36,778 nt of DNA from a virus: positions 1-36,778 of the IMG/VR virus record IMGVR_UViG_3300045988_162097. One strand, 5' to 3'. Below the pieces are notes generated by a model. It ran no database searches, had not been told where the DNA came from, and saw only the letters and a program-made list of their open reading frames with translations. The position numbers were made by a program, and so were the translations under genes. Shown piece by piece: positions 11,703-20,439 of this stretch (position 1 is its first letter; the number at the start of each line of letters is the position of its first letter).

Positions 11703-12055
11703 ATTTTACACCCAGCAGGTGTATTGGACAAAGACAAACTCGAGGACATGTCATTGGACAAAATGGACAAAACACCGAGTTTGTCCTGTCCGCCGAGTAA
11801 AATTAATTACACCTTTTAGGTGTAGTGGACATGGACAAAGTCGAGGCATTTGTCGAGTTTGTCCATGGACAGGCACCCTATACCCTTATAAGGGGTAAAA
11901 AGTGGAAGTGTCCAAAATTGGCCAGGTCCATGAATGGGTCAGTCAAGGGGGCATTAAATGCTGCCCCCCTTGGCCTGCCCAATCAATCATGGACAATCGC
12001 GAAAAAGAAAAATAAAAGAACGTGAAAAAATCACAAAGTAAAATGAGGTAAAAAT
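11703..12055. repeat. Putative origin of replication: iterons TGGACAAA (at least 4 direct copies), inverted TTTGTCC, 10-bp palindrome GTCCATGGAC, two ACACC…GGTGT hairpins, a GC hairpin, and an A-rich unwinding tract
   Basis: Non-coding 350-bp gap immediately downstream of the primase-helicase gene. Repeats seen directly at 11725-11772, 11826-11873, 11708-11722 and 11810-11824. The A-rich stretch lies at 12001-12055. Confidence 0.55.
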
Positions 12056-16684: not shown

Positions 16685-16825
16685 ATGATTAAATATTTAA
16701 AAAGGTTTTTATGCATCTTTTGGTACGGGAACCATCAAGCGAAGTTGGAGTTTGGTTTGAATAATGAGGGTCAGATTCGTTTGGTTTTTCGCTGCGCTAG
16801 GTGCGGTAAAATAATAATAAAGTAA
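16685..16825 (+). CDS. Small Cys-containing (zinc-ribbon-like) peptide, 46 aa
   Basis: SD AAGGAG. Motif C-x…CARCGK near the C-terminus. The track ORF begins earlier, at 16634. Confidence 0.4.
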   Translation: MIKYLKRFLCIFWYGNHQAKLEFGLNNEGQIRLVFRCARCGKIIIK

Positions 16826-16837
16826 GGAGGAGCTCGC

Positions 16838-17088: not shown

Positions 17089-17487
17089 TTGCGTTATAAA
17101 AAAATAGCCGAGCAACGGCTGCGTGATTATCCAAATTATGACCGGGAAATAGCTGCGCATCGGTTGAGCTGGTTATGGCATGACCCGGATTGTAATGCTT
17201 GGATTAAGGGCAAGGGCTCGAACTCGAAAGCTATCGAGAACGAAATGTTAAAAGTCGAATCTTCTCGCTATATTCAGAATCGCCTATTTTGGCAGCAGTG
17301 CGTGAATGAAGTATTGGAAGAGCTCGACCCGAAGCAGCGCCAGTATGTGTCCGAGTATTACTTTGAAAATGTATACGATTATCGCTCTCTAGCTAAGAAG
17401 CATCTTACAAATAAAAATGTCATCATGAGAGCGTGTGATAGAGCATGCATGCTGTTGCTTGAAAAATTAGGCGAAAATGTGGGCTAA
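17089..17487 (+). CDS. ArpU/RinA-family phage late-gene transcriptional activator
   Basis: 132 aa, positioned just before the packaging module. Sigma-70 region-4-like C-terminus. TTG start after AGGAGG. Confidence 0.65.
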   Translation: MRYKKIAEQRLRDYPNYDREIAAHRLSWLWHDPDCNAWIKGKGSNSKAIENEMLKVESSRYIQNRLFWQQCVNEVLEELDPKQRQYVSEYYFENVYDYRSLAKKHLTNKNVIMRACDRACMLLLEKLGENVG

Positions 17488-17495
17488 TTTTAAAA

Positions 17496-17528
17496 AGGGA
17501 CAGGAATGGGTTGTTGTCCCAGCTTTTA
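17496..17528 (+). terminator. Terminator-like hairpin after the ArpU gene
   Basis: Stem GGGACA/TGTCCC (17498-17503 and 17515-17520), followed by AGCTTTT. Confidence 0.5.
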
Positions 17529-17606
17529 TGTGATATATTGCTAATGTGGAAAGTTGCGAAAGCGTACTTCCTGCATGATGTCATAGGTTTGACACTCCTA
17601 CAGTTT

Positions 17607-17634
17607 CGGGAGCTTTGGTGCAGCTCCCGTTTAT
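17607..17634 (+). terminator. Perfect 8-bp hairpin CGGGAGCT-ttggtgc-AGCTCCCG followed by TTTAT. Terminator or attenuator
   Basis: Seen directly. No coding context. Confidence 0.4.
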
Positions 17635-17799
17635 GCCCTTAACTGGTACAACGTGGATTTTCTTTTTTCCTTTGTTAATCCTTTGCCCAGGTTTTATTTT
17701 TGCCACGTTGAGCCGTTCGATTCGGCTATGGGGCTTTTCAAGGCATCTATCCTTGGTGCAATATCATTTTTAACAAAAACTAAAAAAGAAAGGAGCCCG

Positions 17800-17826
17800 G
17801 AGCGATTTTATATCGCTCTTTTTTTG
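17800..17826 (+). terminator. Hairpin GAGCGA-ttttata-TCGCTC plus a T7-8 run, 22 nt before the methyltransferase ATG
   Basis: Classic intrinsic terminator shape. Preceded by an orphan SD-like AAAGGAGC. Confidence 0.5.
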
Positions 17827-17847
17827 CGGCTCAGATAGGTAAAAATA

Positions 17848-19116
17848 ATGCAAATAGAAAAAATAAAAATCGCCGATTTATTGGAATATAAAAACAATGC
17901 AAAAGAGCACCCTCAGTGGCAAATCGACCAAATCGTCGAGTCAATCGAAAAATTCGGATTTAATGACCCGATTGCTATCGATGAAAACAATACAATCATC
18001 GAAGGGCACGGTCGTCTTTATGCGCTGCAAGAAATGGGTGCGGATGAAGTGGAATGTATCCGTCTATCGCACCTAAGCGAAAATAAAAAAAAAGCATACA
18101 TACTCGCTCATAATAAGCTGACTATGAATACCGATTTTGATTCGGACCTGCTCGCTCAGGAGCTGGGCGAAATCGAAGGCATCGACATGAGCTCGTTTGG
18201 TTTCTTGTTGGACCCTATTATTGAAGTAGTTGAGGACGACTTTGACGATGAATCGGTTATCGAGCAGCCGGAGCCGATTGCAAAGCTAGGCGATGTGTAT
18301 CAGCTCGGGGAGCACTTCCTTATGTGTGGGGACAGCACTGATTTCATCGCTGTAAAAAAATTATGTGGTGATGCTCTTATGGACCTACTTGTTACGGACC
18401 CACCTTACAATGTGGCCTACGAAGGAAAAACCGAGGACGCTCTTACGATTGAGAATGACAACATGGACGATGCGAAATTCCGGGAATTCTTAAAAGCTGC
18501 TTTTGCGTGTGCCGATGGCGTTATGCGCCCAGGCGCTGCCTTTTATATTTGGCATGCCGATTCAGAAGGATTTAACTTCCGTGGTGCCTGCCGTGATATT
18601 GGTTGGACTGTTAGACAATGTCTGATATGGAATAAGAACCAAATGGTCCTAGGCCGTCAGGATTACCAGTGGAAGCATGAGCCGTGTCTATACGGGTGGA
18701 AGGATGGAGCAGCTCATTATTTTGTTGATGACCGGAACCTGCTCACGGTCCTAGAAGAAGAATCAGAATTAAAGAAAATGTCAAAAGCGGAGCTCATTAA
18801 TTATATTTTGGAATTTCAGGAGTCTACTGCGACCACTGTGATTAATGAAGTGAAGCCTAGCCGTAATGGTCTACACCCTACGATGAAGCCGCTACGCCTA
18901 ATCGAGCGCCTGGTGCGTAACTCTAGTAAAAAAGGCGAGAATGTGTTAGACCTATTCAATGGCATCGGGTCCACTCTTATGGTCTGCGAGCAATTGGGCC
19001 GCCGGTATTTTGGTATGGAACTCGACCCTCGTTATGTGGATGCTACCATCGAGCGCTGGGAAGAATTCACGGGTAAAAAAGCAGTGAAGATATCTTCAAA
19101 CAATCAAGATAATTAA
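17848..19116 (+). CDS. ParB-like nuclease domain fused to a beta-class N6-adenine/N4-cytosine DNA methyltransferase (orphan methylase, likely anti-restriction)
   Basis: N-terminal ParB-N-like region (…IEGHGRLYAL…). Motif IV DPPYN (LVTDPPYNVAYEG) precedes the SAM-binding motif I (LDLFNGIGST). That motif order is the beta class. Confidence 0.85.
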   Translation: MQIEKIKIADLLEYKNNAKEHPQWQIDQIVESIEKFGFNDPIAIDENNTIIEGHGRLYALQEMGADEVECIRLSHLSENKKKAYILAHNKLTMNTDFDSDLLAQELGEIEGIDMSSFGFLLDPIIEVVEDDFDDESVIEQPEPIAKLGDVYQLGEHFLMCGDSTDFIAVKKLCGDALMDLLVTDPPYNVAYEGKTEDALTIENDNMDDAKFREFLKAAFACADGVMRPGAAFYIWHADSEGFNFRGACRDIGWTVRQCLIWNKNQMVLGRQDYQWKHEPCLYGWKDGAAHYFVDDRNLLTVLEEESELKKMSKAELINYILEFQESTATTVINEVKPSRNGLHPTMKPLRLIERLVRNSSKKGENVLDLFNGIGSTLMVCEQLGRRYFGMELDPRYVDATIERWEEFTGKKAVKISSNNQDN

Positions 19117-19995
19117 TAGCAGGTTTCGTTTGTGAATGGTTATTTTTTCAAGGATTATAACAGCAAAAACATTCAGTAAAGAGAACGTTTCAAGGGTTAT
19201 AAACCTTGATTTTACGCCATTTTCGGGCGTTTATAAACGTGAAGAGAGTTAGTGCAGAGTGTGAAAAGAGTTTATATGAAGAGTTGGCTTGTGAATAAAT
19301 TTATCGTTTTTCGCAAAGGTCAAAAGTTTTGAAAAGGTCGAAAAATTTTTAAACACAAAACATTTCATTTTTTCACGGTTTTTCGAGATTTCTTTGTGAA
19401 TCGTTGTGAACTTACTTTTTGAGCCTTTATAAACACTTTTTTTACGAGATTTAAGGGATTGAAAACCTTGATTTTATGCGTTTTTTAGACTCTTGATAAC
19501 GTTAAATATTTCAACAACGTTTTTTGAAGAGACGTTTTTCATTTTCGTTTGTGAAAAAATCGCATTTAAACGGGAAAAAGTTGCCAAGACTTTTTTTGAC
19601 AACATAACAGCATTTAAAAACCTTGATTTGGCGCCATTTCTAGGTGGTGCATTTTCGCAAGGTTTTACAAGAAACAGAGCAAGAAAAGTTATAAAGTTTA
19701 TTTTTATGTTTATTGTGAAAAAATCTCATTCTTTTGTTAAAAAAGGGCATGAGAGAAATATTTTAAAACAATCAGTTTTTGCCTTTGTGCATTTTTGGTG
19801 CTATCACGATCTAAAATCGCAAAGGTTTTTTACAAGATTTTAAAACCCTATAACGGCGCCTTTTGTCGGGTGTCGTTTTTTAGTTTTTACCGCATGAGAG
19901 TTCCCAAGAGTTTGGGCGTCCTTTTCCTTTGTGAAAAATCAGCGGTAAAATAATCATAAAGACAAAAGACTAGCAAAAAAAGGAAGTGAGGCGGT
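19117..19995. repeat. 870-bp AT-rich non-coding region packed with dispersed or tandemly diverged repeats (AAACCTTGATTT x3; TTTGTGAA[A/T] x6 or more; TTATAAAC x3; GCGCC-ATTT-..GGGTG x3; TCGCAAAGGT x3). Candidate pac/terminase recognition region, late regulatory region or ncRNA locus
   Basis: Seen directly. It is the only large gap in an otherwise compact genome and lies immediately upstream of terS. The only ORF here (19493-19843) is a Phe-rich, low-complexity product of T-rich sequence and has no RBS. Confidence 0.6.
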
Positions 19996-20439
19996 TTGGC
20001 TAGTGGTAACGAAAAAAATTTAATACCAAACTCCCAGCGAACTCCTGAGGAATTGCGAGAAATGACTCGCAAGGGTGGCATTGCTAGTGGTAAGGCAAGG
20101 CGCAAAAAAGCCGATTTAAAAAAGGCCATGCAGACCTTGCTGTCGATGAATGTTCAGAGTGATAAGTCGCGTGCATTGTTGGAGACGATGGGGCTGGAGC
20201 CCACGAATGAGATGCTGCTCGCTGTGACTACGTTCCAGCAAGCGGTTAAGGGTAACCAGCGTGCGATGGAGAATGTTATGAAGCTGTCTACTACTGAAAA
20301 AGATAAGCATGATGTAGCTGAGCAAAAAGAACGCATCAAGGCAGCTAAAATGAAAAATCAGCAGCTGGCTGAGAATGGTGGCCGTGAGGCTGTGATAGAG
20401 ACGGTGGTGTTTATGAATGAAGCGAACATACCAGATTGA
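19996..20439 (+). CDS. Terminase small subunit
   Basis: 147 aa directly upstream of and overlapping terL. N-terminal HTH-like, basic region. TTG start after AAGGAAGTGAGG. Confidence 0.7.
   Translation: MASGNEKNLIPNSQRTPEELREMTRKGGIASGKARRKKADLKKAMQTLLSMNVQSDKSRALLETMGLEPTNEMLLAVTTFQQAVKGNQRAMENVMKLSTTEKDKHDVAEQKERIKAAKMKNQQLAENGGREAVIETVVFMNEANIPD

Follow-up and report, generated by a model that had tools for sequence, protein, structure and literature searches.

A repeat-structured control region ahead of the small-terminase gene (terS) is a known kind of phage DNA. In SPP1 and SF6, the packaging site (pac; pacL-pacC-pacR, with boxes a, b and c) consists of sets of direct repeats at the terS promoter and start, in bendable A/T-tract DNA (PMC4737164; PMC6316719); runs of 5-7 A/T broken by GC are suited to wrapping around TerS (PMC4737164), and the SPP1 site overlaps late promoters, the ribosome-binding site and the 5' end of terS (PMC6316719). 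The binding sites of late regulators of the Ltr type (RinA/ArpU/LtrC) are direct repeats of 7 nt that precede terS, and a terminator separates the ltr gene from terS (PMC3753634); RinA depends on sequences that lie >155 bp ahead of the start of transcription (PMC3152322). We analysed a stretch of 36,778 nucleotides of viral DNA (IMG/VR record IMGVR_UViG_3300045988_162097, positions 1 to 36,778; hereafter the window), in which a non-coding repeat island at 19117-19995 immediately precedes the gene in terS position. The part of this locus that might surprise is a 22-nt module that is shared with DNA close to integrase and terminase genes elsewhere.

The island resembles the SPP1/SF6 site in its direct-repeat sets and A/T tracts, and the TerL, portal and gp7-like genes of SPP1 are homologous to those of the island phage. 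It also resembles lambda cosB (R3-I1-R2-R1), which is likewise non-coding and immediately upstream of the small-terminase gene (Nu1), with repeats for a specific protein interleaved with a bending-factor site in a phase-dependent geometry, much as we propose for the island below. However, lambda is a cos phage with a cosB of ~120 bp, whereas the island covers 879 bp beside SPP1-like headful-type genes; and cosB uses IHF, which streptococci are not known to have, whilst the proteins that may bind the island are candidates.

As a preliminary description of this DNA had it, the island is repeat-dense, AT-rich and without a credible open reading frame (ORF). Its GC content is 0.31-0.345 compared with ~0.44 for the window, of which it is the longest ORF-poor stretch; further gaps of 120-360 nt are present (e.g. 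17488-17847). The longest island ORF (116 aa, TTG start) and five others had no Pfam or PHROG matches, and a 43-aa ORF on the - strand, followed by hand in the homologue alignment, lacked third-position bias. Substitutions relative to homologues were spread over the three codon phases (41/48/46) without 3-base periodicity, and the indels among homologues (10 nt and 1 nt) break the frame. Searching the island by tblastx against related loci and the genes that fill the same slot in relatives produced nothing below E = 0.25. The flat phase counts, frame-breaking indels, lack of family matches and negative tblastx together led us to reject a degraded gene, a pseudogene or a set of small proteins. 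A normal gene at this place in related phages had been named beforehand as the finding that would make the island a pseudogene; relatives do carry genes in the slot, but tblastx shows no remnant of them and the island is thus not a decayed copy of its neighbours' genes. By blastn, the island had no match among 50,697 phage records and 72,556 plasmids, and the literature searched contained no such element.

The island is a reiterated motif pair at a fixed spacing of 62-64 nt and not a duplication of ~200-bp units. The first member of the pair, the head, is the heptamer TTGTGAA, which starts at 19130, 19289, 19394, 19404, 19549, 19713 and 19929, always on the + strand. These are 7 of the 12 copies in the window, whilst shuffles with the composition of the island contained a mean of 0.145 copies and at most 3 in 5000 shuffles. 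Four heads have the extended form TTTC-N-TTTGTGAA (19124, 19388, 19543 and 19923). The second member, the module, opens with the 12-mer AAACCTTGATTT, exact at 19201, 19463 and 19618 and with no further copy in the window, followed by (T/G)(A/G)-(C/T)GC(C/G) and a T-rich tract, with a short GC hairpin in two units. Three heads are followed by AAACCTTGATTT after 64, 62 and 62 nt on the same strand. Also repeated are TTATAAAC (19197, 19231 and 19427) and hairpins of the form (A/G)CGCC...GG(C/T)G (19214-19230, 19631-19650 and 19852-19877). The repeat-family coordinates given beforehand were right within 1 nt for every motif; the four diverged ~200-bp units into which they had been arranged did not hold, the similarity among the head-module spacers of the units not being significant (z = 0-1.7). 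A fixed spacing with non-homologous spacers implies that the constraint acts on geometry. Centre to centre, head and module are ~73 bp apart, i.e. ~7 helical turns, so that both would face the same side of the helix. In a fourth unit (19703-19883) the module is degenerate and a convincing intrinsic terminator (10-bp stem plus TTTTTT) closes the unit, and the last head (19929) is followed, instead of by a module, by the terS start after 67 nt. The features of the island are as follows, where the other haplotype is the second of two forms found among its homologues.

19117 to 19995, no strand: the whole non-coding repeat island, 879 bp, from the methyltransferase stop (19116) to the TTG of terS (19996).
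19130 to 19136, + strand: TTGTGAA head 1, extended form TTTCGTTTGTGAA.
19201 to 19230, + strand: module 1, AAACCTTGATTT then TA and an ACGCC...GGCGT hairpin.
19289 to 19295, + strand: TTGTGAA head 2, with GTGTGAA at 19259-19265.
19315 to 19353, + strand: 19-nt tandem repeat AAAGGTC(A/G)AAA; an extra 10-nt copy in the other haplotype makes GGTCAAAAAGGGTCAAA.
19394 to 19410, + strand: TTGTGAA heads 3a and 3b, 10 nt apart.
19463 to 19484, + strand: module 2, AAACCTTGATTT-TA-TGCG-TTTT; AAAACC...GGTTTT hairpin in the other haplotype.
19549 to 19555, + strand: TTGTGAA head 4 (TTTCGTTTGTGAAAAAATC).
19618 to 19666, + strand: module 3, AAACCTTGATTT-GG-CGCC hairpin inside a AAAACCTTG / CAAGGTTTT inverted repeat.
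19713 to 19719, + strand: TTGTGAA head 5.
19843 to 19883, + strand: degenerate module (AAACCCTATAAC) and strong intrinsic terminator-like hairpin (10 bp) with TTTTTT; stem kept and loop variable in homologues.
19903 to 19926, + strand: second small hairpin, then a T-rich tract; pairing kept as G-U despite a C to T change.
19929 to 19935, + strand: TTGTGAA head 6, 67 nt before the terS start.

DNA homologues of the island (84-90% identity) were confined to one clade, represented by eight island-bearing contigs (two from IMG/VR, four from metagenomes, three of these ~38.4 kb, and two short Logan contigs), and the copies form two mosaic haplotypes. The preliminary description had looked to related phages for conservation of the repeat families, and within the clade they are near-invariant: in six full-length copies, 1 of 85 motif columns varied compared with 151 of 794 (19%) elsewhere, a 16-fold difference (Fisher p = 1.3e-6), which points to purifying selection on the motifs. 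The central blocks of the island are 0.89-0.95 identical, compared with 0.75-0.79 at the third codon positions of the flanking genes, whilst the blocks 19100-19300 and 19700-19800 (0.74-0.78) evolve at about the synonymous or neutral rate. One Logan contig (L175) lacks exactly one unit, head 4 being fused to the body of unit 5 (junction at L175 162-189; window 19568-19732 missing), apparently through recombination between two heads. It follows that the units are modular and redundant and that their copy number is polymorphic. The 10-nt repeat at ~19315-19353 is also polymorphic between the haplotypes. As a separate observation, GGTCAAAAAGGGTCAAA in one haplotype (L002 3312-3328, L001 3313-3329, L051 4448-4464 and L179 1915-1931; window equivalent ~19315-19340) fits the consensus of the CtsR operator (RGTCAAA-NAN-RGTCAAA), a form absent through loss from the window haplotype, which reads GGTCAAA-N11-GGTCGAA.

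All island-bearing contigs that hold terS share one TerS allele (at least 93% identity). The next-nearest phages (RinA 86%, TerL 80% and TerS 62-72% identical) have no island. They keep the ~360-nt non-coding leader after rinA and the ParB-domain gene, and their slot before terS holds coding cargo (a different methyltransferase domain, a SAM-decarboxylase-like protein and others) that abuts terS at 1-33 nt; in the annotated prophages Javan316 and Javan213, it is the methyltransferase gene that lies 28-30 nt from the terS homologue. The island was absent from 45 loci with a TerS 51-72% identical. A hidden Markov model (HMM) of the unit, run against 183 loci, recovered the same clade only. These comparisons show the island to be an insertion specific to its clade, placed between the methyltransferase gene and terS; because genes abut terS in the sister phages and prophages, it is neither the essential pac site of the family nor its late promoter.

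The module was found outside the clade. Its extended form is 22 nt, AAAACCTTGATTT-NN-CGC(C/G)-N-TTT(T), which can also be written AAAACCTTGATTT-NN-CGC-NN-TTT. A scan of 2.9 million viral contigs with AAACCTTGATTTNNCGCNNTTT returned this clade and 10 contigs in 7 sequence families (GC 0.32-0.48), whereas the reversed control pattern, of identical composition and runs, gave 0 matches. Positions left free in the pattern were biased too (A before the 12-mer, G after CGC, T after TTT). The outside copies (L185-L194) have the form AAAACCTTGATTT-NN-CGCG-N-TTTT, often with an AAAACC...GGTTTT hairpin. Their contexts are as follows.

L185 and L186: module upstream of a tyrosine-integrase gene (Pfam-confirmed), at a prophage-host junction.
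L190, L193 and L194: module 140 nt past the 3' end of a Pfam-confirmed integrase gene with an arm-DNA-binding domain.
L191: module in attP position, flanked by the endolysin gene and by a gene that probably encodes a tyrosine integrase (Pfam match below the family cut-off).
L188: two copies between a terS-like gene with a helix-turn-helix (HTH) and a LAGLIDADG (homing endonuclease) gene upstream of a terL-like gene; the second copy, ~90 nt upstream, is degenerate (AACGTTGATTTGACGCGGTTT).
L192: module within a 373-aa ORF.
L187 and L189: contexts uninformative.

The integrases that adjoin the module are 22-27% identical to each other, so the module does not belong to a single lineage of integrases. 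Locus-specific short direct repeats adjoin the module in L185, L187, L188 and L189; the apparent terS and terL neighbours in L189 were not confirmed. Only copies with the AAA prefix were taken as the real family. A relaxed 16-base module pattern gave 37 loci, near the chance level and with its high-GC matches mostly inside ORFs, and was not counted. The pattern TTGTGAA-N-AACCTTGATTT was too permissive (at least 119 loci, mostly chance), and pairs of AAACCTTGATTT 140-165 nt apart were mostly short-period, collagen-like coding repeats (L050, L052-L054) or unrelated regulatory regions (L055, L057).

The reading that we tentatively favour is that the island is a platform for nucleoprotein assembly which works at the level of the DNA, of the same kind as attP arms, lambda cosB or SPP1 pacL. 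It draws on the co-oriented motif pair in helical phase, the unrelated spacers, the selection on the motifs, the phased A/T tracts and the module shared with att- and terminase-proximal DNA. The A/T-tract periodicity of the island is the strongest in the window (normalised power 17-21 at a period of 11.75 bp, rather than 10.5 bp, compared with at most 12.6 elsewhere), and we count this phasing for the platform since it matches the description of SPP1/SF6 pac DNA. On the same side we place the constancy of the TerS allele among island-bearing contigs, set beside an exchangeable RinA allele, and the loss of a single unit in L175. On such a platform, the clade-specific heptamer would be the site of a phage-specific sequence reader and the module 62-64 nt downstream that of a widely shared accessory or bending factor. 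The most likely client appears to be the small terminase subunit, given the position of the island and the SPP1-like packaging genes, followed by the RinA-family activator and then by a satellite integrase. With the small subunit bound, the island would act as a pac-type recognition or loading region extending upstream of terS, and the terminator at 19852-19883 might insulate terS from upstream transcription. The preliminary description had suggested pacL/pacR-like terminase sites; the array features at the DNA level keep that suggestion alive, whereas the sister phages speak against a pac essential to the family. A wider proposal, which we regard as speculative and rather doubtful, is that the 22-nt module is the site of an accessory or architectural factor shared by low-GC Gram-positives or their phages, a functional counterpart of IHF used in both integrase att and terminase-proximal complexes, the island then being a tandem array in which each site is paired with a phage-specific heptamer.

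Several points weigh against a terminase platform. Because genes lie 1-33 nt from terS in the sister phages (TerL 80%, TerS 62-72%) and in Javan316 and Javan213, an upstream pac is not a property of this TerS family, and the pac of the S. mitis phage phiB6 has been reported inside terS (PMC2828477). Unlike SPP1 pac, which extends into terS, the island has its motifs outside the gene: neither TTGTGAA nor AAACCTTGATTT occurs within 19996-20439. The SPP1 pac region is ~270 bp, so that the 879-bp island is more than 3 times its size, and to our knowledge the array far exceeds every mapped pac site in length. In further contrast to SPP1-type comparisons, the island is absent from sister phages with a related TerS, and the TerS-position protein has no detectable similarity to any solved TerS. 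We know of no sequence-specific bending protein such as IHF in streptococci, and the match of the reverse complement of the module to the E. coli IHF core (WATCAA-N4-TT) is partly imposed by the search pattern. Of the outside copies, the uninformative contexts of L187 and L189 count on the same side, as does L192, where the N-terminus of the ORF appears to be TnpB-type-transposase-like.

A second explanation, which we consider somewhat unlikely, is that the island is an auxiliary Ltr/RinA operator array, its heads being extra activator sites from which late transcription of terS would resume past the 19852 terminator, or which would titrate the activator to sharpen the timing of the late switch. 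The phage does encode a RinA-family protein, and as in the Ltr operator region there are 7-nt direct repeats upstream of terS and terminator-like hairpins between the regulator gene and terS (17799-17826 and 19852-19883). The relevant features are:

17089 to 17487, + strand: RinA-family late transcriptional activator gene (TIGR01636 phage_rinA at 40.1 bits, cut-off 31.9; PHROG 36, transcriptional regulator).
17488 to 17847, + strand: structured leader, Ltr-type late control region, with direct repeats ATGTGAT (17528) and ATGTGGA (17544) and an intrinsic terminator (17799-17826).

By tblastn, the 17089-17487 product had no match at E 1e-3 or better in the 50,697 phage records; it thus belongs to a poorly sampled Ltr lineage. 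The leader has a hairpin just after the regulator gene, the two direct repeats, a long leader segment and a strong terminator ~21 nt before the ATG of the first late gene; its repeat placement and layout fit the Ltr/RinA/ArpU paradigm (PMC3753634; PMC3152322). It is conserved in the island-less sister phages, with repeats that read TCGTGAT and TCGTGGA there, has 8 compensatory base pairs (RNAalifold) and matches no Rfam family. The leader is apparently the genuine site of RinA-dependent late control and possibly also an attenuation or antitermination leader. Since this canonical leader precedes the methyltransferase gene, the ParB/methyltransferase gene is the first late gene of the family and the island lies within the late operon. 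The island as a late promoter is thereby weakened; extra activator sites stay compatible, as the heads share a TGTGR core with the leader repeats.

The Ltr paradigm of 7-nt repeats before terS (PMC3753634), the far-upstream requirement of RinA (PMC3152322) and the last head, 67 nt before terS and behind two terminator-like hairpins, all suit activator sites. However, canonical Ltr repeats are 2-4 copies in a ~59-nt block right after the regulator gene, and that arrangement is found at 17488-17847 and not in the island. The canonical pair at 17528/17544 is kept in island-less sisters whose first late gene is the ParB/methyltransferase gene, whereas the island heads are scattered at intervals of 10-216 nt, at least 1.6 kb from rinA. 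No head is followed by a conserved -10 element (a candidate TAAAAT reads TAAAAC in the other haplotype), and the relaxed form WTGTGRW is frequent elsewhere, with 23 other + strand copies in the window. The RinA allele is also exchangeable among island-bearing contigs: the recombinant L178 has a different allele with its own leader repeats (TCGTGAT, TCGTGGA), and its TTGTGAA heads are unchanged. Of the earlier proposal of reiterated ArpU-dependent late-promoter elements, the activator-site part thus survives, whilst the gene is of the RinA family (TIGR01636), and not demonstrably ArpU, and the canonical control region lies in the leader.

An unlikely third explanation is a structured non-coding RNA (ncRNA): a long 3' untranslated region or leader, or several small RNAs, serving for example as RNA-based counter-defence or regulatory cargo. 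The island lies within the late transcription unit with a good terminator at its end, and the slot is a variable cargo position in relatives (methyltransferase, SAM-decarboxylase-like and other accessory genes). The + strand folds better than shuffles (z = -4.0), but the - strand does so equally well (z = -4.7), a signal expected from inverted-repeat-rich DNA and one that we ascribe to DNA palindromes. Two substitutions keep + strand pairs as G-U, but 0 of 44 predicted pairs had a compensatory change, a comparison of low power because there are only two effective haplotypes. A terminator-like hairpin of the - strand lies in unit 4 (19580-19603), where one natural substitution preserves a G-U pair of the - strand only; no - strand promoter matches it. 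Promoters were inconsistent in the island as a whole, with 4 sigma-70 matches, all on the - strand, compared with 2.8 expected, and the paralogous units keep short linear motifs rather than stems. Rfam gave 0 matches at the gathering threshold in the whole window and nothing convincing in the island at E up to 10; the best weak match there (E = 0.14) was to a eukaryotic lncRNA family overlapping the terS start, far below threshold. The ncRNA locus raised in the preliminary description has so far gained no support.

That the island is an att-like docking region, or the scar of an integrative element such as a satellite, is improbable. Here the heads would be arm-type sites and the module an accessory site, in a landing pad, decoy or remnant upstream of terS. 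As with lambda-type attP arms (arm-type Int plus IHF/Xis sites), the module lies beside tyrosine integrases with locus-specific direct repeats in several unrelated phages; four independent lineages have it next to a tyrosine-integrase gene. One study has reportedly documented satellites that insert themselves into the late operons of prophages. The three-motif pattern, searched in the metagenome collection, was found in this clade and one other locus family only: L177 (~1040-1345, - strand) and L182 (~1270-1560) share a ~250-nt segment of mitis-group chromosomal DNA with TTGTGAA-62-AAACCTTGATTT-75-TTGTGAA, the layout of an island unit, beside a satellite-type integrase in L177. Its counterpart in L182 has no integrase and lies beside a BNR/sialidase-like gene. 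The phage-unit HMM matched L177 and L182 across the 12-mer alone (E ~0.06-0.08), so that wider homology was not established, and by our estimate ~1 chance match is expected for the 26-base pattern in a very large AT-rich collection. Unlike attP, the island has no core or crossover site and is part of the late operon, not of the lysis-int junction; no integrase gene is present in the window, the genes of which run on one strand in a lysis-early-replication-late layout, and no integrated element was seen in any of the eight island-bearing contigs. As side observations, the left edge of the L177/L182 segment (TTCATTCTCGAAAAATAAAATATTATTCAGAA) resembles the streptococcal dif_SL site, and its 3' part matches the satellite prophage Javan305.

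We hold it just as improbable that the island is functionless or selfish repeat DNA, either an insertion in decay or MITE-like units that a headful phage tolerates. Its absence from all relatives outside one clade, the varying unit number and 10-nt repeat, the mosaic haplotypes and the near-synonymous rate of the blocks 19100-19300 and 19700-19800 would suit this. Against it stand the 16-fold lower variability of the motif positions, central blocks 89-95% identical, exceeding third-codon-position identity, and a pair spacing kept in three units with unrelated spacers. Moreover, because the three-motif pattern is confined to the clade and one locus family, the island is not a high-copy host repeat.

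A replication origin, or a parS/sopC-type centromere array served by the adjacent ParB-domain protein, is very improbable: like F-plasmid sopC and P1 parS the AT-rich, iteron-like array directly follows a gene that encodes a ParB-type domain, and TGTGAATAA and TGTGAAAAA are similar to DnaA boxes (of the 35 near-matches in the window, the island has 6), but the DnaA-box excess is TTGTGAA recounted, the units are not near-identical as in sopC/parS, the ParB similarity is N-terminal only and fused to a methyltransferase with no full ParB carrying an HTH domain, relatives with the same gene lack the array, and 8-14 kb separate the array from the replication genes (Sak4, helicase, primase), which have their own non-coding gap at ~11703-12055.

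Other candidates were set aside as not fitting the features: CRISPR-repeat or tracrRNA mimicry, ToxI-like arrays and BOX/RUP/SPRITE elements, and likewise CcpA, CodY, CiaR and FNR sites and a P1-type methylation-gated pac. TTGTGAA is also the left half-site of the pneumococcal Rex operator, the consensus of which is TTGTGAA-N4-TTCACAA, with TTGTGAAAAAATTAACAA as a functional operator (PMC6018154); three heads carry TTGTGAAAAAAT, which is identical to the left half of TTGTGAAAAAATTAACAA together with its spacer. Rex was rejected as the island holds half-sites only, with no right half-site and no full operator at 3 or fewer mismatches.

The genome in the window is that of a siphophage, ~38 kb long and circularly permuted, with a single-strand gene layout, which runs from holin/endolysin through early genes, Sak4/helicase/primase, the RinA-family regulator and the ParB-domain methyltransferase to the island, and then from the terS-position gene through terL, portal and Mu-F to the head and tail genes. 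The neighbours of the island are:

17848 to 19116, + strand: ParB-N-domain / N6_N4 DNA methyltransferase gene (left neighbour), 422 aa (PF01555 at 1.6e-33; PHROG 498, 620).
19980 to 19998, + strand: ribosome-binding site AAGGAAGTGAGG and TTG start codon of terS.
19996 to 20439, + strand: terS-position gene, 147 aa, TTG start, PHROG 2412, overlapping the terL start.

The PHROG 620 (ParB) match of the methyltransferase is limited to residues 1-146, its N-terminal domain. GANTC is a common target of methyltransferases of this class, and the island, with 2 sites compared with ~2.5 expected by our count, is not enriched in it. The name terS follows from gene position alone, the homologues being annotated as hypothetical; the 30 nt before its start are nearly invariant among homologues (1 of 30 columns variable). 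The TerL of the window has PF04466 (Terminase_3) and PF17288 (Terminase_3C) domains, and SPP1_portal and Phage_Mu_F are the next two genes in the near-identical packaging module of L175, the TerL of which is 98% identical to that of the window. These SPP1-like TerL, portal and Mu-F genes point to headful packaging. The host is probably an oral streptococcus, since the nearest annotated relatives of TerL, the TerS-position protein and the methyltransferase are from phages of the pneumococcus/mitis streptococcal group. ARAGORN found 0 tRNA or tmRNA genes in the whole window. A 20-nt patch (GCGGTAAAATAATCATAAAG, 19942-19961), which lies past the last head and ahead of the ribosome-binding site of terS, matches 16803-16822 at 19 of 20 positions, probably as a recombination patch; the latter positions are where a short, unannotated ORF (~47 aa, CxxW...CxxC, ~16685-16828) has its 3' end, upstream of a glutaredoxin-like gene.

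The pac sites and late promoters of streptococcal phages are mostly unmapped. If the island proves dispensable, it would be non-coding cargo in the hypervariable slot between methyltransferase and terS. If it is instead a packaging or late-control platform, it would offer a defined, modular and naturally copy-number-variable substrate for the assembly of an SPP1-like terminase or of a distance-acting RinA-type activator. The shared 22-nt module suggests that integration and packaging in IHF-less, low-GC Gram-positives may rely on one accessory factor, and the array would, if this is true, be a handle with which to identify it. Such a factor would bear on the old question of how DNA is bent by the tyrosine integrases and terminases of Gram-positive phages.

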